A stretch of 64,000 bases of DNA from a virus, in the IMG/VR virus record IMGVR_UViG_3300028393_001967, one strand, 5' to 3'. The position numbers and the translations under genes were made by a program. How positions within the stretch are numbered: position 1 is the first letter of the stretch; every line of letters begins with the position of its first letter. Shown here one piece after another: positions 31,277 through 58,609 of the stretch. Below the pieces are notes generated by a model. It saw only the letters and a program-made list of their open reading frames with translations. It did no database searches and was not told where the DNA came from.

Positions 31277-31326
31277 TCTTAACAGGAGTAATTACCCTGA
31301 TCCATAATCGGGAGTCATGACCCGAT

Positions 31327-31596: not shown

Positions 31597-31654
31597 AGTT
31601 TCATAATGGTTTGAACTCTAAATAGATAAGTACAGTTATAACTCCAAGGCTAAT

Positions 31655-32095: not shown

Positions 32096-32096
32096 T

Positions 32097-32171
32097 GGGC
32101 TTTTGGTGAAATGGATATCATAGCGGTCTTCGAAACCGTTGGTGGGAGTTCGATCCTCTCAAGGCCCGCCA
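32097..32171 (+). tRNA. tRNA-Arg(UCG)
   Basis: Loop CTTCGAA; GCCA end. Confidence 0.9.
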
Positions 32172-32174
32172 CAA

Positions 32175-32339
32175 TTAAAGATTGTTGATCCAACGTAGTG
32201 CAGAATTTACGTTGGTAAAGTATTTCATTTCGAAATATGTAGAATCATATGTGTCCTTAACAACGATGCAACATACCCCGTCTAACAAGCATAGATGAAA
32301 TTGTAGACCACTTGGAGTAACGTTGTCATATGTTCTCAT
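32175..32339 (-). CDS. Small hypothetical late protein antisense to the tRNA operon
   Basis: GATAAATA late box just upstream on the minus strand; MRTYDNV... Confidence 0.55.
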   Translation of the reverse strand: MRTYDNVTPSGLQFHLCLLDGVCCIVVKDTYDSTYFEMKYFTNVNSALRWINNL

Positions 32340-32351
32340 AAAAATATTTAT

Positions 32352-32426
32352 CTCGCTGTAGTACAATGGATAGTACCACTCACTCCTAACGAGTTAATAG
32401 GGGTTCGATTCCCTTCGGCGAGACCA
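32352..32426 (+). tRNA. tRNA-Arg(CCU)
   Basis: Loop CTCCTAA; CCA. Confidence 0.88.
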
Positions 32427-32448
32427 AATCAAATTAGACTTTTTAGGT

Positions 32449-32519
32449 GTGACTATGTTGTAATGGTAGCAACCTAGACTGTGACTCTGGTAGTACGGGT
32501 TCGAATCCCGTTAGTCACC
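32449..32519 (+). tRNA. tRNA-His(GUG) without encoded G-1 or CCA
   Basis: Loop CTGTGAC; C73; flanked by ACTTTTTAGG/CCTAAAAAGT. Confidence 0.88.
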
Positions 32520-32533
32520 CCTAAAAAGTTTAT

Positions 32534-32610
32534 GCCCCGTTACGCTAATTGGTAGTGCGGATTCTCTCAAAAGGAGTTGGATGTCTGTTCGAATCAGACA
32601 CGGGGTACCA
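32534..32610 (+). tRNA. tRNA-Leu(CAA), short variable region
   Basis: Loop CTCAAAA; A73; CCA; no V-arm. Confidence 0.8.
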
Positions 32611-32622
32611 TATAAATACACA

Positions 32623-33126
32623 ATGAAACTGCTAGACTTATTACTCGAATCCAATATAGATTCCCTATTAGAAGAATTTTGGGCACAATGTACACCTGTG
32701 CAATTACAATATTATTTTGTACAGGACAACTGCTATGGTGCTAGCCAGGACCTAATGCAGTTTTTAGATAAACAAAAAGGTATTCGTAATGCAGAGATTG
32801 TTCCTATTGGTAGAATAGTAAATGGTAAAAAGTCTATGGGCTGGTTTAGGGCCGATGTAGCAGATACAAGCCTAGATGCATTTACACGAGATGATGTTGC
32901 CAAACTACGTAGTCAAGGTTTAGATCCACGTAAATCTCAAGATCGAGTTGCCTATATAACTAACAACAACCTAACTGAAGAGTTTTGTTGGATTCCACAT
33001 AGTTGGGTAGAAATACGTGGACGTATACTAGATCCCAGCGGTTTCTACAAAGATGGCAAGAGCGGACAGTTTGATCGTATGGTCAAAGATAAAACTAATC
33101 TCACATCTAGATATCAATATTTCTAA
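32623..33126 (+). CDS. Hypothetical protein, putative virion internal protein
   Basis: TATAAATA at 32611; MKLLDLLLE; NCY...HSWVE...ILDP suggests a transglutaminase-like C/H/D triad. Confidence 0.6.
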   Translation: MKLLDLLLESNIDSLLEEFWAQCTPVQLQYYFVQDNCYGASQDLMQFLDKQKGIRNAEIVPIGRIVNGKKSMGWFRADVADTSLDAFTRDDVAKLRSQGLDPRKSQDRVAYITNNNLTEEFCWIPHSWVEIRGRILDPSGFYKDGKSGQFDRMVKDKTNLTSRYQYF

Positions 33127-33127
33127 T

Positions 33128-33202
33128 CTGGCGTTCGTATAGTGGAAAATACAGGAAGCTTCTACCTTCTAAACAGCGGTTCGATTCCGTTACGCCAGAC
33201 CA
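33128..33202 (+). tRNA. tRNA-Arg(UCU), second copy
   Basis: Loop CTTCTAC; CCA. Confidence 0.9.
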
Positions 33203-33212
33203 TATAACCTTA

Positions 33213-33297
33213 GCCCTGGTGGTGGAATTGGTAGACACGCAGCGTTGAGGTCGCTGTGCCGAAAGGCTTGGGAGTTCGAGTCTCCCCCAGGGCACCA
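33213..33297 (+). tRNA. tRNA-Leu(GAG)
   Basis: Class II; loop TTGAGGT; CCA. Confidence 0.93.
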
Positions 33298-33354
33298 AAA
33301 TTAATGATACAAAAAGACATTGACATTCATAGTTAAATACGTATAATAATATAT

Positions 33355-33467
33355 GCGGCTGTGAGTGGAATATAGCAGACCTCCCGCTTGACCCATAGTC
33401 AAGAATGGGGACGGGGCAAGGACATAGTCATTTGCTTTTGCGGGTGCAAGACCTGCCAGCCGTACCA
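33355..33467 (+). ncRNA. tRNA-Leu-like RNA whose anticodon loop is replaced by a hairpin/pseudoknot
   Basis: GCGGCTG/CAGCCGT-ACCA; insert CTTGAC-CCATA-GTCAAG-AATGGG; own promoter at 33320. Confidence 0.7.
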
Positions 33468-33520
33468 GATTTTAAATACTTGTTGACAAGGTGCAATAAG
33501 TAGTGTATAGTAAGTATTAA

Positions 33521-33610
33521 GGAACGGTCCCATAATGGTATTGGAGCGGATTGCTAATCCGTCGAGTGATGAAAGTCGCTTTCTGAGTTCGAGTCTCAGT
33601 CGTTCCGCCA
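33521..33610 (+). tRNA. tRNA-Ser(GCU)
   Basis: Class II; loop TTGCTAA; GCCA end. Confidence 0.9.
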
Positions 33611-33631
33611 TAAAATTTATAAAGAGAAAAA

Positions 33632-33856
33632 ATGAAACCTAATAAGACTTTCAAAATGCGTAGTACAACAAAGACATTAATGGGTTCAATCGTTGATCCA
33701 GTGCAACGTAATCAATTCAAGAATATGATGATCCAAGCACAATTGGCAAGTGAAGTTGTTGTTAAACGTGAACCACGTAATGATAACAAACCTCGTGGTA
33801 ATGCAGGTTATGTAACAAATGATACTGGCACTGCCAGTACTTCATCAGAAGAATAA
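33632..33856 (+). CDS. Small basic hypothetical protein
   Basis: AGAGA RBS; phage-like codon usage. Confidence 0.65.
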   Translation: MKPNKTFKMRSTTKTLMGSIVDPVQRNQFKNMMIQAQLASEVVVKREPRNDNKPRGNAGYVTNDTGTASTSSEE

Positions 33857-33863
33857 AGAATAT

Positions 33864-33936
33864 TGGCATATAGCTCAGTTGGTAGAGCAACGGACTGTTA
33901 ATCCGTGGGTCCCTGGTTCGAGCCCAGGTTTGCCAG
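33864..33936 (+). tRNA. tRNA-Asn(GUU), second copy, no encoded CCA
   Basis: Host-like body TAGCTCAGTTGGTAGAGC; loop CTGTTAA. Confidence 0.9.
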
Positions 33937-33945
33937 CCCTACATC

Positions 33946-34019
33946 GCTCTTATAGTTTAATGGAAGAACACTGTCTTGGTATGACAGGAATTGCAGTTCG
34001 ATTCTGCATTAGAGCACCA
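33946..34019 (+). tRNA. tRNA-Thr(GGU)
   Basis: Loop TTGGTAT; CCA. Confidence 0.88.
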
Positions 34020-34030
34020 TACTTAAACAT

Positions 34031-34507
34031 ATGAACAAATTTACAGACTTTCCAGAACAACCTCGCATTATGACCAATGATGAAGGTGAAAAATACTTTA
34101 ACAATATGGTCAGTCAAATTAATGATTTCAAACCTAATGAAATTATTGCTGTGGCACGTAGCGGATTTAGTTATGCTATGTGGACAGCGCAAATTCTTAA
34201 ATTACCACTAGGTGCATATTGGTCAGAACGTGGTGAATTGATTACTGGCTCTGATCCAGAACGTATTGTGTTTGTTGATGACAACATTTTGTCAGGTACA
34301 ACATACAAGGACACTAAACTGTTTATGAGTCGTTACTATCCCAATACTGAATGGCGTTGGGCAGTACTGTTTAGTGATTGGCTTACACCTGAACTTGTTC
34401 GCAATGAAATTATTCAAGGTGTTCGTTTACCTTACTTTGCTGAAGAACCCATGTGGGGCAGTAAGAAAGTAAGTGTTGATTACGGAGTAAGATTCCGAGA
34501 TGAGTAA
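34031..34507 (+). CDS. Type I phosphoribosyltransferase
   Basis: IIAVARSG and PRPP loop IVFVDDNILSGTT. Confidence 0.8.
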   Translation: MNKFTDFPEQPRIMTNDEGEKYFNNMVSQINDFKPNEIIAVARSGFSYAMWTAQILKLPLGAYWSERGELITGSDPERIVFVDDNILSGTTYKDTKLFMSRYYPNTEWRWAVLFSDWLTPELVRNEIIQGVRLPYFAEEPMWGSKKVSVDYGVRFRDE

Positions 34508-34916
34508 AATTGCTTTTGATTTGGATGGCGTATTAGTTCCAGACTATCACCATATTCCCAACTTAACAATGCAAGAGTTTTATCTACAGACTTTGTATGC
34601 CAAACCCCTGTTTAGTCCAGTTGGCGAGTTTGATATTGTAACTGCACGTTCAGCAGAATATAGGCCCATTACTGAAAAGTGGATTGAACAGTTGGCCACA
34701 CGACCACAAACTGTTATAATGAAAACTGACGATGCTGAAACAGCCGCAGATTTTAAATATCGTATCTGTGTAGAACAAGGTTACACATTGTACATTGAAA
34801 GTGATCCGGCAATTGTTGAAGCAATGCGTAAATTAATTTATGATAATGATTATGCCAATCTTGTAAATTGTAATGTAGTACATTTTGCAGGATTTATTGC
34901 GAGTAGCTTAAAATGA
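34500..34916 (+). CDS. HAD-superfamily phosphatase
   Basis: IAFDLDGVL, IVTAR, K and YIESD. Confidence 0.75.
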   Translation: MSKIAFDLDGVLVPDYHHIPNLTMQEFYLQTLYAKPLFSPVGEFDIVTARSAEYRPITEKWIEQLATRPQTVIMKTDDAETAADFKYRICVEQGYTLYIESDPAIVEAMRKLIYDNDYANLVNCNVVHFAGFIASSLK

Positions 34917-36319
34917 TTATTGATTGCTTTATGTTTTTCAACGAGTTTGATATGCTAGAAGGTCGACTTGAATATCTGTTTGACACTGTTGACTATTTTG
35001 TTATTGTAGAAAACGATCTCACTCATAGCGGAAATAAAAAGCCAATGAATTATGCAAATAATACAGAGCGTTATCGAAAATTTCAAAAGAAGATTATATA
35101 TCTTCCATTGAGTACTGATCATAGTAAGTATGACTGGAAAAGAGTGCCGCCGGTTGGTAGTTTGGATGTAACATCGTATTATGCATCTATGGCAATGGAT
35201 GTTGATCAACGTAATTATATTGCACAAGGTTTAAAACAGTTTAAACCCACTGATATTATTATGATCAGTGACTTGGACGAAATCCCAACCAAGAAAGCCA
35301 TTAAACAAGCAATACAACATATTAACAGTGGCGTGGAAGCGGTTGCATTTGTGCAAGATATGTTTTATTACAATCTTAAACAGAAGCAAACTAATCCTTG
35401 GGCAGGAACAATACTGACTACTAATAAATCAGTTGCTGAAAAAAGCCCGCAATGGTTTAGAAGAAAACGATGGGAGTTGCCTAAAATAATGGATGCTGGA
35501 TGGCATCTAAGTTATTGGATGACTCCTGAGCAAATACAACATAAGATTATGAACTTTGCTCATCAAGAATATAATATTCCTGATATTATTAATCTTGGAA
35601 ATATTGCAGAACGCATCAGAACTGGCAAAGATTTATTTGGTAGAGAAACGTCTACAACATCATACACTGAATTTATTCCTGTAGATAGAAGTAGTTTGAA
35701 TCCTGATTTGCTTTCAGTATTTGCTAAGTTTGAACCTAACCTGAATTATATTCCTCATTACTATGAAAATGTAGAAGGGTGGTTTAATCCTGGAGACATT
35801 GCGTTCTATAAAGAGATAATTGACAAGTTCAGTGGTCCTGCTCACTTTGTTGAGATTGGAAGTTACAAGGGAAAAAGTTCTAGCTTCATGGCTGTGGAAA
35901 TTGCCAACAGTGGCAAGAATATTAATTTTGACTGTGTTGATACTTGGGCAGGCAGTCCTGAACATCAAGCTGGTGGCAATCTAGAAGATCCAGATGTTGT
36001 TAACGACAAAATGTTTGACATCTTCAAACAGAATATGGAGCCTGTAAAAAGTTATTATAAAGCCAAACGTATGTCCAGTTTGGAAGCTGCTACTACTTAT
36101 TTGGATAAAAGTTTAGACTTTGTATTCATTGATGCAGATCACAGTTACGAAGCAGTTAGAGCAGATATCATAGCTTGGTGGCCAAAGGTAAAAAATGGCG
36201 GCATCATTAGTGGCCACGACTATCATATGGGTGCGCCAGGTGTTATGAACGCATCAAACGAACTGTTTGGTTATGTAAGAGTTACTGGCAGTTGTTGGTG
36301 GGTTGAGAAAAAAGTATGA
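34913..36319 (+). CDS. GT17 glycosyltransferase fused to a SAM methyltransferase
   Basis: FNEFDMLEGRL, ISDLDEIP and GWHLSY; then VEIGSYKGKSS, FVFIDADHSY and GGIISGHDY. Confidence 0.85.
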   Translation: MIIDCFMFFNEFDMLEGRLEYLFDTVDYFVIVENDLTHSGNKKPMNYANNTERYRKFQKKIIYLPLSTDHSKYDWKRVPPVGSLDVTSYYASMAMDVDQRNYIAQGLKQFKPTDIIMISDLDEIPTKKAIKQAIQHINSGVEAVAFVQDMFYYNLKQKQTNPWAGTILTTNKSVAEKSPQWFRRKRWELPKIMDAGWHLSYWMTPEQIQHKIMNFAHQEYNIPDIINLGNIAERIRTGKDLFGRETSTTSYTEFIPVDRSSLNPDLLSVFAKFEPNLNYIPHYYENVEGWFNPGDIAFYKEIIDKFSGPAHFVEIGSYKGKSSSFMAVEIANSGKNINFDCVDTWAGSPEHQAGGNLEDPDVVNDKMFDIFKQNMEPVKSYYKAKRMSSLEAATTYLDKSLDFVFIDADHSYEAVRADIIAWWPKVKNGGIISGHDYHMGAPGVMNASNELFGYVRVTGSCWWVEKKV

Positions 36320-37860
36320 CAACTATTCAATTAAAGAAGAAACTTAATTTTGGTGGCCGTCGGGTGGGACTAATCATCCCGCCTAGTCCCTTTCTGCTTG
36401 ACGAACGTGTCTTTGTAAGTCTAGGAATTTTGCGAGTTGCTGCTAGCCTTGAACAACAAGGAGTTGATGTTGGTGTTGTAGATCTCAGTGGTGTAAGTAA
36501 CTATTTGGAAGCACTTGATAGTTACGTTGAAACAGCAGACATCGAGTGGATTGGTATTACCTGCACTACTCCACAATTGCCAGCAGCAGTAAGGGTAGCT
36601 ACCCGTATTAGAAAAATACGGCCTAATCTACGTATTGTGCTTGGAGGCCCGCACGTTACACTAACTTACAGCGCAGTTAAGGTAGAAGAAAAAGCCGGAG
36701 TAATTGATGGTCGTGCTCGTAAAGCAGCGAGATTACTTGAAAGTTATTTTGATGTATTGGTATCAGGAGATGGAGAACTAGCAGTATTCGAATGTTTCAA
36801 ATCTGATTGTCCTAAAATGGTAGACGGTGACGATATGCGTGGTGATTTCTTTATGTCTAATGAACAGTATGAAGAACTTCCCCGCCCTGCAAGACATTTG
36901 GTTGATTTGAATACGTATCATTACAGCATTGAAGGGTTCCCCGCAACAAGTTTGATTGCACAGTTGGGATGTCCATTTAACTGCGGTTTTTGTGGAGGAC
37001 GAAATAGTAGAAGCCTACGTATTATTCGCACCCGCAGTGAATGGAGCATTGTTGACGAAGTGCGTTGGTTATATGAAACATATGGTTATACTGGTTTTAT
37101 GTTTTATGATGATGAACTAAACGTCAATAAAAGTTTTGTCAAATTGATGAACGACATTTATGACTTGCAACAGGAATTAGGTGTCGAGTTTAGACTACGT
37201 GGATTTATTAAAGCAGAATTGTTTACTGAAGAACAAGCGGAAGCAATGTACAGAGCTGGTTTCCGATGGATACTGAGCGGATTTGAATCCGCTGACCCTC
37301 GTATGCTGATCAACATTGACAAGATGGCCACACTGGAAGACAATACTCGTGTTGTTGAAATTGCTCACAAGTATGGACTAAAAGTCAAAGCATTGATGAG
37401 TGTTGGTCATCCTGGTGAAAGCGAAGAAAGTATTATGTGTATTCGTGACTGGCTGATCAAAATGAAAATTGATGACTTTGATTGTACAGTGATCACTACA
37501 TATCCAGGCACCCCATACTATGACCTAGCAGTACCTGATCCAGTAGAAAAAGGTGTTTGGACATACACGCATCGTAAAACAGGCGACAAGTTACACTCTT
37601 ATGAATTAGATCATACTGTAACGGCCGATTACTACAAAGGCGACCCTAATGGTGGTTACACTGCCTATGTGTTTACTGACAATTTGAGTGCCAAAAAGAT
37701 TGTGGAACTTCGCGACCTAGTAGAAAAAGACGTTCGAGCAGCATTAAACATTCCTTTTAATCCAGGTGGTGTAGCAGTAAAGTTTGAGCATAGTATGGGA
37801 CAGGGATTACCAGATTCCATATATCGCGAGTCTTTGGCTCTTGACATAGCAACTAAATGA
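36316..37860 (+). CDS. B12-binding radical SAM protein
   Basis: N-terminal cobalamin-binding-like domain (LGGPHVT); CPFNCGFC; FYDDE. Confidence 0.9.
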   Translation: MTTIQLKKKLNFGGRRVGLIIPPSPFLLDERVFVSLGILRVAASLEQQGVDVGVVDLSGVSNYLEALDSYVETADIEWIGITCTTPQLPAAVRVATRIRKIRPNLRIVLGGPHVTLTYSAVKVEEKAGVIDGRARKAARLLESYFDVLVSGDGELAVFECFKSDCPKMVDGDDMRGDFFMSNEQYEELPRPARHLVDLNTYHYSIEGFPATSLIAQLGCPFNCGFCGGRNSRSLRIIRTRSEWSIVDEVRWLYETYGYTGFMFYDDELNVNKSFVKLMNDIYDLQQELGVEFRLRGFIKAELFTEEQAEAMYRAGFRWILSGFESADPRMLINIDKMATLEDNTRVVEIAHKYGLKVKALMSVGHPGESEESIMCIRDWLIKMKIDDFDCTVITTYPGTPYYDLAVPDPVEKGVWTYTHRKTGDKLHSYELDHTVTADYYKGDPNGGYTAYVFTDNLSAKKIVELRDLVEKDVRAALNIPFNPGGVAVKFEHSMGQGLPDSIYRESLALDIATK

Positions 37861-37920
37861 TGCTATAATTAATACATAGCAGCAAATGATGGAGTTGGCT
37901 GCTAACAAGTTCTTTAAAAA
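37841..37920 (+). promoter_or_regulatory. Sigma70 promoter plus boxB-like hairpin and rrn-type boxA
   Basis: TTGACA-17-TATAAT; TAGCAGC...GCTGCTA; GTTCTTTAAAAA at 37909. Confidence 0.7.
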
Positions 37921-37935
37921 GATATAGTAAATTTT

Positions 37936-38019
37936 GCGAGAGTGGTGGAATGGTATACACAGCAGACTTAAAATCTGCCGCTGAAAGGCATACGGGTTCG
38001 AGTCCCGTCTCTCGCACCA
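37936..38019 (+). tRNA. tRNA-Leu(UAA)
   Basis: Class II; loop CTTAAAA; CCA. Confidence 0.93.
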
Positions 38020-38096
38020 TATATAAACACATTAAAACACGCCCCTAGTAGCAGTAGCGAATCAAGGGTGGAAGGTTGAGTGTGTTTATATATGGT
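38016..38096 (+). repeat. Conserved-stem hairpin element F
   Basis: ACCATATATAAACACATT...AGTGTGTTTATATATGGT. Confidence 0.75.
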
Positions 38097-38100
38097 TTTA

Positions 38101-38225
38101 GTTAGGAAGGTGGGATTAAAGGTGTCCATCCTCTAAGGAGTAGGGCCTGTATGTAATACAGGAAGTATTAGGTACCCCGTAACTGGTAAGGCCGACATCC
38201 CTTTTAGCGTAAAAGCACACCTAAC
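38101..38225 (+). ncRNA. ~125-nt structured RNA of unknown class
   Basis: Closing GTTAGG/CCTAAC; GGGAT/ATCCC; CCTGTAT-GTA-ATACAGG. Confidence 0.45.
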
Positions 38226-38234
38226 ATTTTATTT

Positions 38235-38311
38235 GTCCCGTTCATCTAGTGGCCAAGGATAGTATCCTTTTCGGGATATTCACAGAGGTTCGACTCCTCT
38301 ACGGGACGCCA
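38235..38311 (+). tRNA. tRNA-Glu-like gene with an 8-nt anticodon loop
   Basis: Glu-type body; arm GTATC-CTTTTCGG-GATAT; GCCA end. Confidence 0.7.
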
Positions 38312-38324
38312 TATAGTTTTTATT

Positions 38325-38416
38325 GCCAGCGAGACTTGGAAGTCAGAGAGGTCTTATAAGCCTTTTAGCGCCAGATTAGCGTTCTTGAGTGGGTCCGATT
38401 CCCACCGCTGGTACCA
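38325..38416 (+). tRNA. Atypical tRNA with UAU anticodon (Ile-like), long V-arm
   Basis: 1-nt acceptor/D linker; 4-nt D-loop; 6-bp anticodon stem; loop CTTATAA; CCA. Confidence 0.7.
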
Positions 38417-38418
38417 AG

Positions 38419-38651
38419 TTTTGTAGTGTTAGCAAGAGAATGTCACGCTATACGGTATTCTTCGAAGGTACTGTATAGTAGAAGGCAAGCGGGTTCGATG
38501 CCCGGCTGGTCGCTTGAGTGGGACCGGCGATAGATGGAATCCACGCTGGACCGGTATCCCAAGTAACAAGTCCTGGAAGAACTCGACGTAAGGAAGTCCG
38601 GCTCTGTACGTCTAAACACTAGTGATAAACCTGAGGACACTAGACTACAAA
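38419..38651 (+). ncRNA. ~230-nt structured RNA of unknown class
   Basis: Closing stem TTTGTAGT/ACTACAAA; long UUCG hairpin; T-loop-like CGGG-TTCGATG-CCCG. Confidence 0.55.
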
Positions 38652-38720
38652 TTCATTATTTCGTTCTTGCTATTGACGCACAATAAATATTGTGTTATAA
38701 TAGTTTTTTAGTTAGTATTT

Positions 38721-38803
38721 GCGCTGGTGGTGGAATGGTAGACACGCTGGTCTTAGAAGCCAGTGCCTAGTGCGTGAGAGTTCGAGTCTCTCCCGGCGCA
38801 CCA
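38721..38803 (+). tRNA. tRNA-Leu(UAG)
   Basis: Class II; loop CTTAGAA; CCA. Confidence 0.93.
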
Positions 38804-38834
38804 CAATTTTGTTTAACATTTATAGAAAGTACTT

Positions 38835-39062
38835 ATGATTCAACCTAAATTGGTCCGCACAATGAACGACACTGAAAAATGTGTTGAGATGATTGGTAAT
38901 CGTTTTGATCTTGTTCTTGTTGCGGCAATTCGCACTCGTGAATTGAAACGTGGCAGTCGTCCTCTAGTGGACAATAACAACAACAGTTCCGCTATTGTTA
39001 CTGCTCTTAAGGAAATTGAAAATGGCAAAGTTGGTATTGAATATTTGAGGAAAGTACGATGA
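38835..39062 (+). CDS. rpoZ: RNA polymerase omega subunit homologue
   Basis: CVEMIGNRFDLVLVAAIRTREL...IVTALKEIENGKV matches the omega consensus NRFxLVxxAAxRARQL...ALxEI. Confidence 0.85.
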   Translation: MIQPKLVRTMNDTEKCVEMIGNRFDLVLVAAIRTRELKRGSRPLVDNNNNSSAIVTALKEIENGKVGIEYLRKVR

Positions 39063-39244
39063 GTAAGGGCAGTCGACCACGACCATTTAGTGTTAGCCAA
39101 GAAGAACTTGGTAATAAGTTTGATGCAATTTTTGGAGAGAAACTTAAGAAACCACAATATGTTCCTCCCCCATTGCCAGAAATTGAAAAACAAGAAAGTA
39201 AAATTAGTTGGGTAACATCAACTAATGATAGCAATAAGGAATAA
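39059..39244 (+). CDS. Hypothetical protein
   Basis: ATGA overlap; MSKGSRPRPFSV. Confidence 0.6.
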   Translation: MSKGSRPRPFSVSQEELGNKFDAIFGEKLKKPQYVPPPLPEIEKQESKISWVTSTNDSNKE

Positions 39245-39245
39245 T

Positions 39246-39416
39246 ATGTCAGAAGAAATTCAAGTAGAACAGGTAGAACCCACTGCTAAAAAGTGTGGTT
39301 GCGGTCGTAGCCCATTGGGCGTATGCATTGGTTGGCACGCACTAGGTGAAGACGAATTCCGTCAAGCACTTGCTGTATATGAATCTAATGTTATTCCTAA
39401 GAATGATTTGATTTAA
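39246..39416 (+). CDS. CDGSH-type Fe-S/Zn-finger-like small protein
   Basis: CGCGRSPLGVCIGWH resembles CxCxxS...CDGSH; AAGGA RBS. Confidence 0.65.
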   Translation: MSEEIQVEQVEPTAKKCGCGRSPLGVCIGWHALGEDEFRQALAVYESNVIPKNDLI

Positions 39417-39421
39417 ACACG

Positions 39422-39495
39422 GCCCTACTAGTACAATGGTAGTACACTGGTTTTGTAATCCTGTGATGGCAGTTCGATTCTGTCGTGGGGCACCA
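39422..39495 (+). tRNA. tRNA-Thr(UGU), second copy
   Basis: Loop TTTGTAA; two mismatches in the anticodon stem; CCA. Confidence 0.8.
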
Positions 39496-39496
39496 A

Positions 39497-39705
39497 GGGA
39501 AACCCGGTTTACACTTTTACCGTTATAAAAGTGGGTGGGGCAGTCACCATAGAGAGCGCCGGGTGTGCAGTGCATTGACCATTAGTTCCCCATTTAAGGG
39601 ATACTAGAACGCATTGGGTGAGGACTAACGCCTTTCCAGAAGAAGAAATGTTATGGACGGGGCAACCACCCAGTTCAGGGCTCTTGTGGTGAGAGTAGCT
39701 GGACA
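39497..39705 (+). ncRNA. ~200-nt GC-rich structured RNA of unknown class
   Basis: Hairpins CACTTTTA/TAAAAGTG, CAGTGC/GCATTG and TAGTTCCC/GGGATACTA; no ORF. Confidence 0.45.
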
Positions 39706-39839
39706 CTTTATTATAATGCATTGACTATGCGGACTTCATCCCAGTAGTAGCAATACTGCCCAAATCGTCTTTAAAGGTGCCTGTGGGTCGACTTAGTCAA
39801 AGCAGGTGAACATTTGTCGTTAGTGTGTTATAATAAAGT
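39705..39839 (+). repeat. Conserved-stem hairpin element G
   Basis: ACTTTATTATAATGCATTGAC...GTTAGTGTGTTATAATAAAGT with G:U pairs. Confidence 0.7.
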
Positions 39840-39841
39840 AT

Positions 39842-39915
39842 GCGGGATTAGTTTAATGGTAAAACAGCAGATTTCCAATCTTCGGTCAAGAGTTCGATTC
39901 TCTTATCCCGCTCCA
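39842..39915 (+). tRNA. tRNA-Gly(UCC)
   Basis: Loop TTTCCAA; TCCA end. Confidence 0.9.
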
Positions 39916-39930
39916 AGATTAAGATAGGTA

Positions 39931-40443
39931 ATGATGAAAGAAAAGTTTAAGCAAGCATTCATGGATACAGCCCGGCGGTTCGCAGAACTTAGCCACGCTC
40001 GTAGACTAAAAGTTGGTGCTATTGTAGTCAAAGATGATCGCATCATTAGCATTGGTTACAATGGTATGCCCGCAGGTTGGGATAACAACTGTGAAGACCA
40101 AGTATGGGATAGTGGTGCAGGTGGCTGGTTAGATCCAGAAGAGTTTGATGCCAAGTATCCATATGAAGGTTGGCACGAAGGTGCTCAACGTGATGTACGT
40201 TACGGATTAAAAACTAAACCAGAGGTATTACATGCTGAATCAAACGCGATTGCGAAATTGGCTAAGTGTGGTGAGTCCGGATTGGGGGCAACCTTATTCG
40301 TTACTCACAGTCCTTGTATTCAGTGTGCTAAACTTATTTTACAGTCTGGCATTAGTAACGTTTATTATAATGAAAATTATAGAGATGATTCAGGCTTGAC
40401 ATTCCTTGAGAAGTCAGGTATAATAGTAGAACAAGTTAAGTAA
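39931..40443 (+). CDS. dCMP deaminase
   Basis: KVGA, GYNG, HAESNAI and SPCIQC. Confidence 0.92.
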   Translation: MMKEKFKQAFMDTARRFAELSHARRLKVGAIVVKDDRIISIGYNGMPAGWDNNCEDQVWDSGAGGWLDPEEFDAKYPYEGWHEGAQRDVRYGLKTKPEVLHAESNAIAKLAKCGESGLGATLFVTHSPCIQCAKLILQSGISNVYYNENYRDDSGLTFLEKSGIIVEQVK

Positions 40444-40450
40444 GATTTTT

Positions 40451-40525
40451 GCGTCGTTAGTTCAGCGGTAGAACTCCATCCTTACACGGTGGCTGTCGGC
40501 GGTTCGATCCCGTCACGACGTACCA
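40451..40525 (+). tRNA. tRNA-Val(UAC)
   Basis: Loop CTTACAC; CCA. Confidence 0.9.
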
Positions 40526-40532
40526 GTTTATT

Positions 40533-40609
40533 CGGAGTGTAGCTCAGTCTGGTAGAGCACTGCGTTTGGGACGCAGGGGCCCAAGGTTCGAATCCTTGTA
40601 CTCCGACCA
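40533..40609 (+). tRNA. tRNA-Pro(UGG), second copy
   Basis: Loop TTTGGGA; CCA. Confidence 0.93.
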
Positions 40610-40611
40610 AG

Positions 40612-40804
40612 AACGTTCTGTCTAATCAGCAGATAGTATGACCCGTACGATGAGAAGTGCTGTGATAAGCAAGGGTGGTAGTCTTCTTACCAAAAGGCCG
40701 CTAGCAATGCGAGAACGGTCCCTGTCGGGGAGCGGGTGGAAGGTACGTGTGATGACTCCAAAGGTCTGATGTACTATAATTACCGCCGGGGGATGCAGAG
40801 CATT
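40612..40804 (+). ncRNA. ~190-nt structured RNA of unknown class
   Basis: Closing GTTCTGT/GCAGAGC; ACCCGT/GCGGGT; GC-rich; no ORF. Confidence 0.45.
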
Positions 40805-40830
40805 TATTTTAAAATATTTTTAAAAAAGTG

Positions 40831-40901
40831 TTGACAAACAGTAAGAAGTTTGCTACAATATATACATACACTAAGCAATTAGCGTATACGTTCTTTAAAA
40901 A
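40831..40901 (+). promoter_or_regulatory. rRNA-like promoter plus boxB-like hairpin and boxA
   Basis: A-tract, TTGACA-17-TACAAT, TACACTAA-GCAA-TTAGCGTA, then GTTCTTTAAAAA at 40890. Confidence 0.75.
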
Positions 40902-40916
40902 ATCGAGTATAAGAAG

Positions 40917-41031
40917 TTCTTATACAACTGCCCACTAAGGCGTAGGCCACGCTGATATGGTTAGAGCATAGCATTGTCTATTGGCAATGTCCACAGGTTC
41001 AAATCCTGTAGGTGTGCAGTTGTATAAGAAT
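40917..41031 (+). ncRNA. tRNA-like cloverleaf without CCA, mounted on a 15-bp stem
   Basis: TTCTTATACAACTGC/GCAGTTGTATAAGAA; T-arm ACAGG-TTCAAAT-CCTGT; D-loop with GG. Confidence 0.55.
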
Positions 41032-41032
41032 T

Positions 41033-41926
41033 TAAGGGTAGTTTAATATCCTGTAGGCGGTTCGCCGTCGACGAAGAATAACTGTGGTGACACAGCCAAA
41101 GGAGGTATGCCTACATAACTCCGCTAGTAATAGTTCGTTTAGACAAGCCTGCTCACTGTCGCGAGACAGCGATCACTGATAAGACCGGTGGTTGTAACAA
41201 TGACGCTGGATGTTGTGGAAAGAACCTTTGCTTACAAGCCCGCAAGGGGAACTTGAGTAGATGGAAAGTAACAGGTGGTGCTGACTTCACAACTAAACCA
41301 GTCCAGTTAATTAGTATGAGAAAGGGTAGTGTATTTGTCCGAAGGGTTGCACCTAAGGGCTTGTATGCAGTTTGAGTGGTTAGTGGAGGCTGTCAGCAAT
41401 GGCGGGGTCGACACAGATCGCAAAAGACGACTGAGTAGTTCGCAAGACAAAAGGTACGTGGTGTGTTGTATTATGTAGTCCAAAAGATTATGTAGCAACT
41501 GAGTCAGCACATCGCAGTAGGTTTACAGTAGCACAATGGTAGTGCAATTCCCTTTTAAGGAATAGGCTGTTGGTTCAAATCCAACCTTATATAAAATGCA
41601 AAGACTGACTCGGTCGTATGTGAAAGACATCTAATACTTGGCTCGTAAGAGAACTAAGTCTAATTAAACTCGCAAGGTGAGATTAGTTTATACAGGATGT
41701 TTCGTAAGGTGTTAGCGCACTTGAATGGCTCGCAAGGTCAACGGAATGGAAAGTGTAGAATAGCATACGGCGACGTGACTACTGCCTGTCACTAAAAACG
41801 GCGATGTTGACAACAGACTAGGATACCTAGCAATAGGGCTTAGTGGAAGTCGGAAGAAAGTAGACTCGCAAGGTTTACAATAATGTCCGAGGTGTTGTTC
41901 GGTAAGGATGTATTCTCAGTCCTCCA
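41033..41926 (+). ncRNA. Giant (~900-nt) structured ncRNA, GOLLD-like, with embedded tRNA-Lys-like domain
   Basis: No + strand ORF; raised GC; many GNRA tetraloop hairpins (CGCAAG x5, GCGAGA, TAGCAATA); tRNA-cluster context. Confidence 0.7.
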
Positions 41927-42019
41927 TTATATTAAAGTACATTTAATTTATACATAGTGTAGATATTAAGGCAGTGACACCGCTGTGATTAGAAACGTCA
42001 TAAGTGTGCTTCAATATAA
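41927..42019 (+). repeat. Conserved-stem hairpin element H
   Basis: TTATATTAAAGTACATTTA...TAAGTGTGCTTCAATATAA. Confidence 0.65.
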
Positions 42020-42049
42020 ATTCGTTTTGCAAGTTTTCTCAAAACTTGA

Positions 42050-42288
42050 CTGTGAGTGTGTGGAGATGAGAGATTGCCTATCAATCTACTCTTAAAAAGT
42101 ATATTGGAAACAACTCCGCGATTTAGTGTACCGAGATGAATTGGCTTAATTGCTTTGTTTATTGATGCTCGGAAATATTAGATCCACTGTTTATTGTTTT
42201 TTGCTTTAGTAAAGGTTGCCTTAAAACCAACTTGGTCTAATGTCAATTGCACATTGTCCTGCAATTAACTTGCCATACGCTCACTGTA
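42050..42288 (+). ncRNA. ~240-nt RNA with closing stem and dispersed (A/U)UUG repeats
   Basis: GTGAGTGT/ACGCTCAC ends; more than 10 WTTG units. Confidence 0.5.
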
Positions 42289-42316
42289 TTTTAAATCAAA
42301 TGAAAGGAACTCGATT

Positions 42317-42883
42317 ATGAAATTAACACTTCGCAAAGCAAACGCTCTACAAAACACAATCCAAGAACACATCAAGACTATCGAAGTCACTGCCACAGTT
42401 TCATTGAACGAGTTTCAAACTCCTTCTGTTGAGTTGGTAACCGCCCGTAACACATTAGTTACTAATGATGGTAAACGTGCTGCCTTGACCAAGACCCTGT
42501 ATGGCATTCGTGCTCAAGTTGGTCGTGCCAATGTTGAGTCTGGTGTTAGCGATTTGCTGGCAGATGCCGCATACGTTGACAAGCGTTTGGTACAATTGAA
42601 GGTGTTGACTGACAGCAAGGTAGTTGAGACTGATGCAGTTATCGACGGCAAGTTGGAAAAGATCCGCACACAAGAAAAGACTAGCCGTATGTATGGCTAT
42701 GCTGACACTGTTGATACTGGTGTTCTAACAGCAGAACAAATTGAAGGTTACAAGGCAGCAATGCGTGACTTGAAGAAACAAAAGCAAACAATCAACGACA
42801 AGGTGTTGGAACTTAATGTTCGCACTGAAATTGAATTGAGTGCTGAAACTGTTGCACTGCTACAAGCAGAACAGTTGGTATAA
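42317..42883 (+). CDS. Coiled-coil protein, DIP1984/septicolysin-like
   Basis: MKLTLRKANALQ...GRAN...LELNVRTEIEL pattern; AAAGGA RBS; strongly biased codons. Confidence 0.5.
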   Translation: MKLTLRKANALQNTIQEHIKTIEVTATVSLNEFQTPSVELVTARNTLVTNDGKRAALTKTLYGIRAQVGRANVESGVSDLLADAAYVDKRLVQLKVLTDSKVVETDAVIDGKLEKIRTQEKTSRMYGYADTVDTGVLTAEQIEGYKAAMRDLKKQKQTINDKVLELNVRTEIELSAETVALLQAEQLV

Positions 42884-42889
42884 ATATAC

Positions 42890-42963
42890 AGCGGGTAGGG
42901 TGGTCACCACACCGGTCTCATAAGCCAGGTGCATCGGCAGTTCGAATCTGTCACCCGCATCCA
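42890..42963 (+). tRNA. Atypical initiator-like tRNA-Met(CAU) with 3-nt D-loop
   Basis: 1:72 mismatch; GCGGGT/ACCCGC; loop CTCATAA; CCA; TATAAATA box just upstream. Confidence 0.7.
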
Positions 42964-51026: not shown

Positions 51027-51491
51027 ATGCCTAAGTGTTATCAATTGATTGGTGTGCCAGGTGCAGGTAAAAGCACTTGGGTTGCTAATCAAGAATGGGC
51101 TAAAGATTGTGCATACATTTCTACTGACCATCACGTGGAACGACAAGCTGAACTTGAAGGTAAGACCTATAACGAAGTGTTCAAAGACTTTATGCCCATT
51201 GCTGTAAAGTTGATGGCAGACGATGTTGTCAAGGCCCGTGAAGCAGGCAAGGATATCATCTGGGACCAAACTAGCACTAGCATTGCTAGTCGTACTCGCA
51301 AGTTTAATATGTTGCCTGACTATGAACATATTGCAGTGGTGTTTAAAACACCTGATGAAGAAGAATTGAATCGTCGTTTGGCAAGCCGCCCGGGTAAGAA
51401 TATCCCCAAGCACGTTATGCAATCAATGATTGCAGGTTGGGACGAACCTGAATTAGATGAAGGCTTCAAAGAAATTTGGTATGCATCATGA
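51027..51491 (+). CDS. Polynucleotide-kinase-like P-loop protein (AAA_33)
   Basis: GVPGAGKST, ISTD, IIWDQT and RxxxR lid. Confidence 0.8.
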   Translation: MPKCYQLIGVPGAGKSTWVANQEWAKDCAYISTDHHVERQAELEGKTYNEVFKDFMPIAVKLMADDVVKAREAGKDIIWDQTSTSIASRTRKFNMLPDYEHIAVVFKTPDEEELNRRLASRPGKNIPKHVMQSMIAGWDEPELDEGFKEIWYAS

Positions 51492-54426: not shown

Positions 54427-54678
54427 ATGTTTGAAGTGATTGGTAAAGAAGAAACATTCAAAGTTTTAACACTGACTGAGGCGATGAATCTTGCCAAGCA
54501 CATGAATGAGTTTGTGACTATCAAAGGTCAAGACTTTGAAATTGTAGGTATGTTTGGTGTAGACAGTATTCGTGATGGTGTTTGTCCAGATGGTGTTAAA
54601 TACGATTGGAACAAAACCAGCCGAATAGGCGCATCAAAAAGAAATGAAAGGGTAATTGAAAATGAAGAAGATTATTGA
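54427..54678 (+). CDS. Hypothetical protein
   Basis: 83-aa ORF in operon context. Confidence 0.6.
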   Translation: MFEVIGKEETFKVLTLTEAMNLAKHMNEFVTIKGQDFEIVGMFGVDSIRDGVCPDGVKYDWNKTSRIGASKRNERVIENEEDY

Positions 54679-55336
54679 GATTAGAGCTGCCGAAGGTGGC
54701 GAAGATAGTAAACTGTTTGTACGAGATCTGGCACAAGCCTATATCAAGTTTGCACAAAGCCGGGGCTGAACTACCCGCCTGATAGGTGAGTACCAAGGCG
54801 AACTTCATTTAGAAGTACAGGGCACTGACCTATCCGGCTTAAAGAATGAACCTGGAGGACATCGCATACAGCGTGTTCCACCCACCGAAAGGAAAGGACG
54901 TGTTCATACCAGCACAGTGACCGTGGCCATCATAGATGACACTGATCGTCCAAGAGTTGTGGCTATACCAGAAACTGATTTAAAAATCGAGTGGTACAGC
55001 GGCACTGGTGCTGGAGGTCAGCACCGTAACAAGCACCAAAATTCCTGCCGAATAACTCATATTCCCACTGGAGAAGTGGCCACTGCACAGTGCCGTAGTC
55101 GTCAAAACAGTTTGGATCAAGCTAGGACAGATATACAGCAAAGAGTTGACAAACTGACTAAAACCAGTTATAATACACACATAGCAAGTGATAGGCGGCA
55201 ACAGGTTGGGTCGGGTATGCGTGGTGATAAAATTCGTACTTACCGTTTCCAAGATGATGTTGTCAAGGATCACTTAACAGATCGTACAGCCAGTGTTAAA
55301 AAGGTATTGGCTGGTAATTTTGATTTACTTTGGTAA
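54662..55336 (+). CDS. Class I peptide release factor homologue (RF1-type PxT, lacks domain 1) with in-frame TGA at codon 36
   Basis: MKKIIEIRAAEGGEDSKLF...SRG*TTR...EPGGHRIQRVPPTERKGRVHTSTVTVA...GAGGQHRNK...RSRQ...KIRTY all in one frame. Confidence 0.88.
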
Positions 55337-55348
55337 AAGGAGTTTAAA

Positions 55349-56368
55349 ATGACTCGTAAAATGGCAACTATCCGTAAGATTGATGCACTGCGTCCTATTG
55401 AAGGCGCTGATGCAATTGAATGCGCTATCGTAGGTGGATGGACCTGCGTGGTAAAGAAGGGTGAATACACTGCTGGTGATCTGGCTGTGTACTGCGAAAT
55501 TGATTCTTGGATTCCACATAACATTGCACCATTTCTATCAAAAGGAAACTTTCCACGTGTTTTCAATGAAGTCAAGGGTGAACGTCTGCGTACTGTAAAG
55601 TTGCGTGGTCAACTGTCACAGGGCCTTCTATTGGACCGATACACTGTTCTAGACAAGGTTGGTGAGATTTACGAAGGTATGGATGTTTCTGAACTGCTTG
55701 GCATCACCAAGTATGAAGCACCCATCCCCGCAGAACTTGCAGGTGAAGTCAAAGGTATGTTCCCTTCAGTGATTCCGAAGACTGACCAAGAGCGTATTCA
55801 AAACTTGTCAGCAGAGTTGGCGGAGTGGAAGACTGAAAATCTATCTTGGGAAATTACAGAGAAACTCGATGGGTCTTCAATGACTGTTTATGTTATTGAT
55901 GGTGAAGTTGGTGTTTGCTCACGCAACCTTGACCTCAAGCGTAATGTTGATAATTCATTGTGGCGTGCCGCTATCCGGCACGACTTAGAAGAAAAGTTGA
56001 AGATTGCAGGTGGTAACATTGCAGTCCAAGGTGAACTGATTGGAAACGGCATTCAAGGTAACAAGTACCAAATGCGTGATCAAGACTTTTATGTTTACGA
56101 CATTTATGACATTGATGCAGGTCGTTACTACACTCCTGCTGAACGAGTGGCGTTTGTAACTGAACACAAGTTGAATCACTGCCCTATTTTGATCTCTAAT
56201 GATCGTTTGGGCGGCGGCGAAACTATTGAAAATCTGTTGAAGTACGCTGAAGGTAATTCAGAATTGAATCCCAAGCAAGAGCGTGAAGGACTGGTGTTCA
56301 AGTGTAACGAAAAGTCTGTGAGCTTCAAGGCAATTTCTAACAAATTTTTATTAAAGAGTGGTGAATAA
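55349..56368 (+). CDS. RNA ligase, DRB0094/Rnl2-like family
   Basis: PIEGADAIE, KLRGQLSQGL, PKTDQERIQN, EKLDGSS, QGEL, EGLVFK and FKAISN. Confidence 0.9.
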   Translation: MTRKMATIRKIDALRPIEGADAIECAIVGGWTCVVKKGEYTAGDLAVYCEIDSWIPHNIAPFLSKGNFPRVFNEVKGERLRTVKLRGQLSQGLLLDRYTVLDKVGEIYEGMDVSELLGITKYEAPIPAELAGEVKGMFPSVIPKTDQERIQNLSAELAEWKTENLSWEITEKLDGSSMTVYVIDGEVGVCSRNLDLKRNVDNSLWRAAIRHDLEEKLKIAGGNIAVQGELIGNGIQGNKYQMRDQDFYVYDIYDIDAGRYYTPAERVAFVTEHKLNHCPILISNDRLGGGETIENLLKYAEGNSELNPKQEREGLVFKCNEKSVSFKAISNKFLLKSGE

Positions 56369-56913
56369 TGAATACTTGGGTAACAAGTGATTTACATTTT
56401 GGACATAAGAACATTATGTCCTTTTGTCCTGTATCGCGGGCAAGGTTTCGTAATGACGTAGACTATATGAACGAGCAAATGGTCAAGGAATGGAACGACC
56501 TGATTGCTCCTGAAGATACAGTGTACATATTGGGTGATGTGGCATTCTTGCCTGCTCAAAAGGCAGCAGAATTTATGAACCGCTGTAACGGCACTAAGAT
56601 CTTAGTTGAAGGTAATCACGACCGTAAGACACTGAACGATCCCACATTCCGCAAGTGTTTTAAGGAAGTACACCAATACCTGCGATTGGTCTATGATGGC
56701 ACTGTTGTATGTATGTTTCATTATCCAATTCAGGAATTTGATCAACAACATCGTGGCTCTGTTCACTTACACGGTCATCTTCATGGAGGTGTTAGTGGAA
56801 TCGAGCACTACAGAGTCCTTGATGTAGGTATGGATGCAACTGGTATGATTGCGATCTCGATGGATGATGCTGTTGCACAGGCCCTAAAAGGCCAAATCAA
56901 AGGGCATCACTAA
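56368..56913 (+). CDS. Calcineurin-like phosphoesterase
   Basis: SDLHFGH, LGD, GNHD, HYP and HGHLH. Confidence 0.88.
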   Translation: MNTWVTSDLHFGHKNIMSFCPVSRARFRNDVDYMNEQMVKEWNDLIAPEDTVYILGDVAFLPAQKAAEFMNRCNGTKILVEGNHDRKTLNDPTFRKCFKEVHQYLRLVYDGTVVCMFHYPIQEFDQQHRGSVHLHGHLHGGVSGIEHYRVLDVGMDATGMIAISMDDAVAQALKGQIKGHH

Positions 56914-57697: not shown

Positions 57698-58609
57698 ATG
57701 AACAAAGATGAATTGAAAGAGTTTGTATTGGCTAACCCACGGTTGGTCAGTATGAAGCCTGCTGGCGATGGTATCTATGTGCTAAAGTATTCCAAGCGAG
57801 TCTTCTACGATGACTTGTGGAATGACTTTCTTGAAGAATGTCGCGGCACAATTGTGGATGCTGACTTCAATGTAGTATCACGGCCATTTACAAAGATCTA
57901 TAATTTCCGCGTAGAAGCCAATGCTCCTGTGTTGACTGATGATACTCCTGTAACTGCTTATCGTAAGGTCAACGGATTTATGGTGGCAATGACTTGGCAT
58001 AACAACGATATCCTAGTGAGCACCACTGGTTCCACTGCTAACGACTATGTTGACTATGCTAAAGAAATGATGCTGAAGCACTCCTGCTGGGCTGACTGGC
58101 AAATGGCAGTGCTGGGTGCTCGAGGTCATACTTTGATGTTTGAATGTGTGCATCCAAGCGACCCACATATCATTGTAGAAAAGACTGGGATGTATTTCTT
58201 AGGCTGGCGTGAAAATGCCTGGAACTCTCGAGTTCACGGCTTTGGTTGTGATGAGGTGTGGCGGATATTTGCTGAAGATACGTTAAAGTGTTATGCAGTA
58301 GAATCTTATCACATGACTGTGGGTGAGTTGGTAGCAGAGTCTAAAAAGGTTCGCCACGAAGGATTTGTGGCCTATACTGTGAACGGTCAAGCGTTTAAGA
58401 TCAAGAGTCCATACTACTTGACCAGCAAGTGGGTTGCTCGTAATCCTCGCACTGACAAGTTAGTGAATATGGAAGCCGACATCAAGAAAAACCTCGATGA
58501 AGAATACTATCCACTAGTTGACGCGATACGTGCTAATATAGTAGAATATACTGCAATGGATGAACAAGCACGCCTAGCCTGGGTGCGTAACTATTTGGAG
58601 ATGGTATGA
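57698..58609 (+). CDS. T4 Rnl1-like RNA ligase
   Basis: ECRG, RPFTKIYN, KVNG motif I, FE, EGFV and KIKSPYY. Confidence 0.8.
   Translation: MNKDELKEFVLANPRLVSMKPAGDGIYVLKYSKRVFYDDLWNDFLEECRGTIVDADFNVVSRPFTKIYNFRVEANAPVLTDDTPVTAYRKVNGFMVAMTWHNNDILVSTTGSTANDYVDYAKEMMLKHSCWADWQMAVLGARGHTLMFECVHPSDPHIIVEKTGMYFLGWRENAWNSRVHGFGCDEVWRIFAEDTLKCYAVESYHMTVGELVAESKKVRHEGFVAYTVNGQAFKIKSPYYLTSKWVARNPRTDKLVNMEADIKKNLDEEYYPLVDAIRANIVEYTAMDEQARLAWVRNYLEMV

Follow-up and report, generated by a model that had tools for sequence, protein, structure and literature searches.

A short RF1-type release factor gene of tRNA-rich phages with a conserved in-frame UGA, a candidate read-through gate

Why should a virus keep a release factor gene that is itself broken by a stop codon? 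This question is raised by a stretch of 64,000 nucleotides from the IMG/VR virus record IMGVR_UViG_3300028393_001967 (the whole stretch is referred to as the window here), in which a reading frame for a class I release factor contains a single in-frame TGA. A first-pass annotation, made from the letters of the window, had proposed that this gene yields a read-through-gated rescue factor working together with a DRB0094-type RNA ligase and a phosphoesterase encoded next to it. We found that the interrupted frame is kept under purifying selection in phages, metagenomes, and bacterial genomes. We propose, with a probability of just under 0.6, that synthesis of the factor is gated by programmed read-through of UGA at a Trp codon (codon 36), as part of an accessory gene set of tRNA gene arrays.

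An RF1-like factor interrupted at a conserved Trp codon

The gene is made up of the following parts.

54662..55336, plus strand: short RF1-type release factor gene, 224 codons, domains 2 to 4, one in-frame TGA
54662..54766, plus strand: N-terminal 35 codons, covering the first strand and the helix with the tip GGE; aligns to RF1 “EIRxGxGGxE...”
54767..54769, plus strand: candidate recoding site, the in-frame TGA at codon 36, a conserved Trp codon

The frame runs from the ATG at 54662 through 35 sense codons to the TGA and then through 188 sense codons to a TAA at 55334 to 55336; it is not extendable upstream, because the open reading frame (ORF) that precedes it lies in another frame. All of the release factor motifs listed in the first-pass annotation (EIRAAEGG, GHRIQRVPPT, HTS, GGQ, and IRTY) were recovered in this one frame and where it had placed them. 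In an alignment to solved RF1 chains, the TGA coincides exactly with the Trp of “...RKGW” / “...ARRW,” in agreement with the earlier assignment of this single stop to a conserved Trp codon, and the GGQ and the switch-loop region are present.

When the TGA is read as Trp, the product has 224 residues and matches RF-1 and the second half of PCRF in Pfam. Among the NCBIfam models, two for RF1 matched best, NF001859 (199 bits; positions 107 to 333 of 347) and TIGR00019 (196 bits; positions 115 to 341 of 361), in both cases under the curated cutoffs of 400 and 423, respectively; the RF2 model gave 122 bits. Given that the RF1 models align from position 107 or 115 onward, domain 1 is absent, and the structure alignment likewise lets the factor begin at the first strand of domain 2. 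Together with the motif PPT, this bears out the RF1-type PxT motif and the lack of domain 1 noticed earlier. The residues with which RF1 reads stop codons are kept, namely, the helix-tip GGE, Q-R-V-P-x-T-E (with PPT), and H-T-S, which here read IQRVPPTE...RVHTS; in RF1, the helix tip (GGE) reads U1 of the stop codon. PPT and GGQ are invariant in 92 distinct sequences of the family, and the identity to bacterial RF1 is 33 to 36%. An AlphaFold model (41 family members) reached a predicted local distance difference test (pLDDT) value of 86, and its top structural matches are ribosome-bound RF1, with a template modeling (TM) score of 0.88 and a root mean square deviation of 3.0 Å. Sequence and modeled fold thus indicate that the encoded protein is an RF1-like class I factor starting at domain 2, whose motifs predict specificity for UAA and UAG.

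The missing domain 1 is shared with PrfH, and the product could accordingly be a PrfH-like factor, made when decoding fails, that rescues damaged ribosomes independently of the codon and together with the adjacent ligase and phosphoesterase. On the PrfH model TIGR03072, however, it scored 41.1 bits against a cutoff of 166.65, with the GGQ domain alone covered, versus 199 bits on RF1, and the solved PrfH structure 9mor matched the factor at 30 bits, so that the analogy with PrfH drawn in the first-pass annotation is not supported. Given that all RF1 codon-reading motifs are kept and invariant, the protein resembles a terminator that depends on stop codons more than a factor for damaged ribosomes.

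In order to follow the stop through the family, we used 171 distinct near-complete relatives, 47 to 85% identical to the window gene, from IMG/VR, JGI metagenomes, species-representative genomes, and a protein collection, so that phages, metagenomes, and bacterial genomes are all represented. As the single stop, TGA is present at the Trp codon in 168 of these; the best 80 IMG/VR relatives (67 to 85% identity) have it at codon 36 without exception (80/80), and the copies on Variovorax and Bosea megaplasmids, which we examined apart from the 171, have it at the same codon. The other three (loci L081, L164, and L165) have TGG at the Trp codon and a single in-frame TAG four codons later (codon 40), where their relatives have Gln or Arg. 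None of the 171 contains an uninterrupted frame, and TAA never occupies the gating position. The outcome that the first-pass annotation had named as speaking against a gate, TGG in all relatives, did not occur, and the three TGG genes carry their nearby TAG.

Database proteins that appear to be “full length,” with W at codon 36, are translations made with TGA as W or TAG as Q, and TAG-type protein clusters number just three in a collection of 5.8 billion proteins. The genes of the TAG sister clade are located at 374 to 1054 of L081, 404 to 1081 of L164, and 1466 to 2143 of L165.

Selection was assessed on the 92 distinct sequences, in which saturation of the synonymous sites (pS, 0.64 to 0.78) contrasts with a pN of 0.20 to 0.24, so that the retention of TGA in 168 of 171 relatives goes far beyond chance. 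Both sides of the stop are under purifying selection, as had been suggested as a check: before it, pN is 0.20 versus a pS of 0.72 (dN/dS about 0.10), and after it, pN is 0.24 versus a pS of 0.64 (dN/dS about 0.2 just 3′). The ATG start is present in 89 of the 92, and no restart codon (ATG, GTG, or TTG) is conserved 3′ of the stop. An in-frame stop that is conserved, flanked by sequences under purifying selection, and not followed by a restart is the pattern by which programmed read-through is recognized.

Seen in a single sequence, a lone in-frame stop would usually be taken to mean that the gene is nonfunctional as a whole, owing to a sequencing error, a recent pseudogene, selenocysteine, or a TGA=Trp code. 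Here, the same stop recurs in 168 independent assemblies, and this conservation, together with the dN/dS values, rules out a sequencing error or a recent pseudogene; the conserved stop, the selection, and the missing restart also rule out decay and a split gene. Since the UGA is conserved and the frame selected, the full-length factor can arise by read-through only. Judging from the gene sequences, it is the full-length protein that is under selection, and the stop appears to be a built-in expression gate rather than damage.

Context and decoding of the in-frame UGA

TGA is otherwise a normal stop in the window, as had been noted before: it ends 17 of the 60 long plus-strand ORFs, including the one just upstream of the factor gene. 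Seven relatives of the phage with complete or nearly complete genomes (235 to 364 kb) use TGA to end 30 to 54% of their ORFs of at least 100 codons, and reading TGA as sense (code 4) in one of them, G002, changed the coding density from 0.889 to 0.896. Frequent genuine TGA stops and a negligible gain in density rule out a genome-wide TGA=Trp code. When the TGA-containing frames of the window were compared with G002 over the aligned part, no other conserved in-frame TGA was found in a true coding frame; the remaining candidates were frame-shadow artifacts, with 46204 to 46851, for example, being an off-frame stretch inside the NAMPT gene.

Two local features lie directly 3′ of the stop.

54770..54787, plus strand: six codons 3′ of the TGA (ACT ACC CGC CTG ATA GGT), candidate read-through context
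54776..54788, plus strand: small hairpin CGCCT-GAT-AGGTG, local to the window

In the main phage clade, codons +1 to +6 show a relative synonymous entropy of 0 to 0.52, with five of the six at or below 0.26, versus a gene mean of 0.75, and the span from +1 to +8 is within the lowest 1.5% of sliding windows for synonymous variation. The base after the gating TGA is A, G, or C and never U; the comparison with genuine TGA stops in these phages, 29% of which are followed by U, is weak evidence. The codon before the stop is GGN, and no Shine-Dalgarno-like sequence is conserved. RNAalifold, applied from −60 to +93 to 83 or 86 sequences, returned no consensus structure, and all that it found on all sequences or on the main clade was a 3-bp GGC/GCC pairing at −2.8 kcal/mol. 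The small hairpin pointed out in the first-pass annotation exists in the window but is unconserved: of 86 distinct relatives, 17 could form the five pairs in full, and 45 retain just three of them. With no consensus structure and a hairpin that can rarely form, a SECIS-type element or a stimulatory hairpin is unlikely, and selenocysteine insertion was rejected on the same grounds, with no conserved SECIS-like structure just 3′ of the UGA in the 83 or 86 sequences. Since the abundance of TGA as a stop and the negligible gain with code 4 also stand against it, we give the explanation that the gene is nonfunctional as a whole next to no probability.

The position of the stop and its context also bear on a simpler alternative, pure attenuation, in which the stop would serve only to keep the amount of an RF3-independent, potentially harmful factor constant and very low and would sense nothing. 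A stop as early as codon 36 wastes little synthesis, and the occurrence of UGA at codon 36 and UAG at codon 40 suggests that any leaky early stop may serve. However, a weak ribosome-binding site would do the same, and the UGA is held strictly at the Trp codon over 47 to 85% divergence and is never replaced by TAA, which, together with the constraint on the 3′ codons, points to a tuned competition site. We regard attenuation as unlikely.

Which tRNA might read the UGA is a question of genomic setting, and the conserved setting of the factor gene is tRNA gene arrays, in phages and outside. Within the flanks retrieved around the factor gene (at most 4 kb), 107 of 160 unique loci contain a tRNA gene. 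The tRNA genes of the window that matter here are the following.

19093..42963, plus strand: tRNA genes, 44 ARAGORN calls, with tRNA-Arg at 19093 to 19167 and the array proper at 28043 to 42963
29473..29547, plus strand: phage tRNA-Trp (CCA), called by ARAGORN, a candidate near-cognate UGA decoder

One of the 44 calls is a tRNA-like gene with a nonstandard anticodon loop, and none of the 44 tRNA genes in the 64-kb window has a UCA or CUA anticodon. All seven complete relatives (7/7) encode tRNA-Trp(CCA). A tRNA(UCA) is found in one of the seven (G003, 343 kb, with a factor 67% identical to that of the window), which has two such genes; tRNA(CUA) is found in five, and one relative has neither. 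The anticodon stem of the tRNA-Trp(CCA) of the window (29473 to 29547) is topped by an A27:C43 mismatch, and this tRNA also contains the pair U11:A24; features of this kind favor UGA reading elsewhere.

Several further observations concern the RNA genes of these phages. In the complete relatives, suppressor-type tRNAs are located near the tmRNA gene (e.g., G002, 363408 to 363482; G003, 199793 to 200005), and TAG is the rarest stop in their genomes (G001 to G007). ARAGORN cannot assign two tRNA-like genes with odd anticodon loops, one in the window (38235 to 38311, plus strand; 6-nucleotide loop UUUUCG) and one in G002 (227532 to 227606, minus strand; 8-nucleotide loop AUUUUCAA); as UCA decoders, these genes were rejected, since their loops contain UUUUC and look Glu-like. 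The window also contains a permuted (two-piece) tmRNA gene (43753 to 44311, plus strand; tag peptide ANDSVYALAA), and tmRNA is encoded in all seven complete relatives (7/7). Inside the phage tRNA array lies a GOLLD RNA (Rfam RF02032, 201.8 bits; 41458 to 41922, plus strand), in which a tRNA-Lys gene (41521 to 41593) is embedded.

The two tRNA(UCA) genes of G003, which lie next to its tmRNA gene, would fit a model of cognate suppression as a timer, in which an opal suppressor tRNA (UCA) of the phage decodes the UGA and stop reading changes in stages; most of the genome of the present phage lies beyond the 64-kb window. Against this model, six of the seven complete relatives have the same TGA and no UCA tRNA (five have CUA and one has none), and the 44 tRNA genes of the window, including the array at 28043 to 42963, hold no UCA tRNA either. 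In addition, the chromosomal copies of Jiella and Kiloniella are found among housekeeping genes, with the TGA kept, and an efficient opal suppressor would be costly where TGA ends 30 to 54% of the ORFs. A timer thus seems rather unlikely to us.

Our preferred reading is instead programmed read-through of the UGA, in competition with termination. Near-cognate reading gives Trp at UGA and Gln or Arg at UAG. Following established decoding rules, we infer insertion of Trp with RF2 as the competitor: most ribosomes would be stopped at the UGA by host RF2, releasing a 35-residue peptide, while a minority would insert Trp and continue to the active factor. The Trp would most likely come from a near-cognate Trp-tRNA(CCA), either host or phage encoded, and the native residue would be restored. 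Output would scale with the ratio of tRNA to RF2 activity, so that more of the RF1-type factor would be made when termination capacity is short, e.g., when the array tRNAs and phage mRNAs flood the cell. A factor made in proportion to the RF2 shortfall or tRNA excess could take over termination at UAA and UAG, which would give the gate a homeostatic purpose. The TAG clade would follow the same logic, because its stop sits where near-cognate reading gives Gln. Given that the motifs predict specificity for UAA and UAG, control of the UGA gate would lie with RF2 and not with the product of the gene, whereas the small UAG clade could be truly self-regulating.

Several points weigh against this proposal. 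An RF1-type factor should not recognize UGA, so that the UGA gate would not be self-regulating in the way that prfB is, and the homeostatic rationale presumes that RF2 would be relieved of UAA duty. The full-length product and its read-through are predicted from the gene sequences, and the 3′ constraint is limited to the main phage clade, with distant and bacterial members differing after the TGA. A UCA tRNA may be encoded in the ∼300 kb of the phage genome beyond the window, and the amber-suppressor-type tRNAs found alongside an RF1-type factor in five of the seven relatives are puzzling. We also rejected two ideas about tRNA-Trp: a special phage version of it, given that A27:C43 and U11:A24 are not found in the relatives' copies, and a link to the factor gene, given that tRNA-Trp is the nearest tRNA in 2 of 107 loci only.

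Genomic distribution and neighboring genes

The carriers of the factor gene are phages of 235 to 424 kb, megaplasmids of about 700 to 800 kb, and the chromosomes of some alphaproteobacteria. A 30-kb island of Gemmobacter caeni DSM 21823 combines 37 tRNA genes and YqeY with the TGA-containing gene, which has PTH2 on one side and a Thg1-like gene on the other (L366 and L367, NZ_QBKP01000002.1, 364 to 404 kb; L349); this island may be a prophage or a tRNA-array island. The copy on plasmid 2 of Variovorax sp. WDL1 (L389, 6959 to 7663) is found among 15 tRNA genes and an HNH endonuclease gene and is split by RefSeq into a “hypothetical protein” and a “peptide chain release factor-like protein.” The copy on pBSY19_1 of Bosea sp. 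RAC05 (L390, about 6990 to 7690), for which the annotation gives the wrong strand, has CRISPR-associated and HipA genes as neighbors, and its PxT is replaced by PAN.

Among 301 sampled genomes of the class to which Jiella belongs, the short factor was found in one, Jiella itself, and the rest matched canonical RF1/RF2; this tally includes two unpublished genomes, G053 and G253, with canonical factors only. No close relative was detected among cultured phages in 50,697 phage records, where the best match was 41% identical, and a DNA-level search of the phage collection gave short ligase matches only.

The neighbors of the factor gene in the window are listed here.

51027..51491, plus strand: P-loop kinase (AAA_33), Pfam AAA_33 at 68.8 bits
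52958..53533, plus strand: dual-specificity or tyrosine-phosphatase-like protein, Pfam DSPc at 27 bits, under the cutoff
54427..54678, plus strand: 83-codon ORF with no Pfam family; its TGA stop overlaps the start of the factor gene by 17 nucleotides
55349..56368, plus strand: DRB0094 (DraRnl)-type ATP-dependent RNA ligase, TIGR02306 at 195 bits, above the cutoff of 151
56368..56913, plus strand: calcineurin-type metallophosphoesterase-like protein with DxH, GD, GNHD, and GHxH; weak NCBIfam matches to PdeM and YfcE
57698..58609, plus strand: T4 Rnl1-like RNA ligase, Pfam RNA_lig_T4_1 at 50.5 bits, above the cutoff of 28.3

In the window, the factor gene thus sits within a run of RNA-repair-type genes (kinase, phosphatase-like protein, two ligases, and phosphoesterase), of which the kinase is possibly the polynucleotide kinase of a local RNA-repair gene set, and the DraRnl-type ligase combines the Pfam RNA_ligase domain with a PHA02142 OB domain. 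The order of these genes is not conserved across loci. Near the factor gene, 60 of 92 loci have the upstream ORF (for the most part directly 5′, at about −330 to −100 nucleotides), 66 have a homologue of the tyrosine-phosphatase-like protein, and 19 have the Rnl1-like ligase. Among the 75 loci with enough downstream flank, 37 have a phosphoesterase homologue at most 3.5 kb downstream, and the DraRnl-type ligase lies directly 3′ of the factor in the window and L001 only; in four more loci, it follows 2.7 to 3.9 kb downstream. Around the more distant relatives, we found none of the ligases, the phosphoesterase, or the phosphatase-like protein, and no RtcB gene was identified among the neighboring ORFs scanned.

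These data also bear on PrfH-like rescue. The P-loop kinase, phosphatases, and two RNA ligases that flank the factor in the window would suit such a role, as would the location of the Gemmobacter copy between PTH2 and a Thg1-like gene, and release factor paralogues have been linked to RNA repair (PMC6514570, PMC7824862). However, the ligase is adjacent in 2 of 75 loci, no RtcB was identified among the neighboring ORFs, and the distant relatives do without repair genes. We consider codon-independent rescue improbable, and the module of factor, DRB0094-type ligase, and phosphoesterase proposed in the first-pass annotation is not supported across loci. Of the read-through-gated rescue factor that it had envisaged, the conserved and selected UGA is supported, and the role in rescue with the ligase module is not.

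Beyond this gene set, the window contains a phage NAD-salvage pair, i.e., an NMN adenylyltransferase/NUDIX fusion (45070 to 46089, plus strand) followed by nicotinamide phosphoribosyltransferase (46131 to 47525, plus strand). Between the kinase and the phosphatase-like gene, a Gly-, Ser-, and Pro-rich ORF (51957 to 52658, plus strand) has a signal-like N terminus and a C-terminal hydrophobic segment and is followed immediately by a small membrane-like ORF with a poly-Thr tract (52659 to 52973).

Significance and comparison with known systems

Few cases of regulatory stop-codon read-through are, to our knowledge, documented in bacteria and phages, and prfB, the textbook example of a release factor gene with a gate at its own stop codon, works by frameshifting. 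Within the present gene family, which spans at least 47 to 85% identity, all of the members that we examined require read-through of a stop. Gene callers mishandle such genes, as when RefSeq splits the Variovorax copy into two ORFs, and many database proteins of the family are code 4 or TAG=Gln translations.

More broadly, and as a tentative proposal to which we give somewhat less than an even chance, the family may form a widespread and so far unrecognized recoding circuit, in which an RF3-independent RF1 paralogue borne by tRNA arrays of huge phages, megaplasmids, and genomic islands is made via read-through of UGA (in a second clade, whose stop evolved at a neighboring codon, of UAG) and the tRNA/release factor balance sets its supply. 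If true, this circuit would parallel the prfB frameshift by means of read-through and would serve as a natural sensor of termination capacity. If the gate senses RF2 or the tRNA balance, it would show how tRNA-rich mobile elements match termination to tRNA supply and would provide a natural, tunable UGA read-through cassette. Cultured carriers, namely, Gemmobacter caeni DSM 21823, Variovorax sp. WDL1, Bosea sp. RAC05, and Thalassospira xianhensis, make the idea testable.

With RF1 (prfA), the factor shares domains 2 to 4, PxT, GGQ, the helix-tip GGE, and QRVP...HTS. It differs in lacking domain 1 (the region that contacts RF3 and the L11 stalk), in its shorter domain 2 loops, in scoring below the family cutoffs, and in its in-frame stop. 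The PrfH/RtcB2 system (PMC6514570) resembles it as a paralogue without domain 1 that has spread horizontally and sporadically and is sometimes located near RNA-repair genes. In PrfH, however, the codon-recognition region has diverged and RtcB is a conserved partner, whereas the present factor has RF1 decoding motifs and no conserved ligase partner, the ligases of the window being of the DraRnl and Rnl1 types.

Genes for RF-1, Pth, and tmRNA have been described inside bacterial and phage tRNA arrays (PMC5966550), which is the same setting, but that work mentions neither a truncation nor an in-frame stop. Phage class I release factors located beside tRNAs and suppressor tRNAs are known from the “Jade” phages and from huge phages (10.1101/2021.08.26.457843; PMC7162821); those genes are described as being in the standard code, in phages with genome-wide stop reassignment, whereas here TGA is normal and the release factor gene alone is interrupted. 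In the full-text literature that we searched, we found no description of an in-frame stop in such release factor genes.

The autoregulatory recoding of prfB (RF2) at an in-frame UGA is established (reviewed in PMC5009743). The present gene differs from it in that there is no frameshift and the zero frame continues, and in that both the CUU UGA C site and a conserved Shine-Dalgarno-like stimulator are missing. Its product is of the RF1 type, so that the UGA clade would be regulated by RF2 and not by itself, and the UAG clade alone could self-regulate. In both systems, a class I factor gene is broken early by a UGA that RF2 reads (codon 26 in prfB and codon 36 here), and the full-length product needs a failure of termination at that in-frame UGA.

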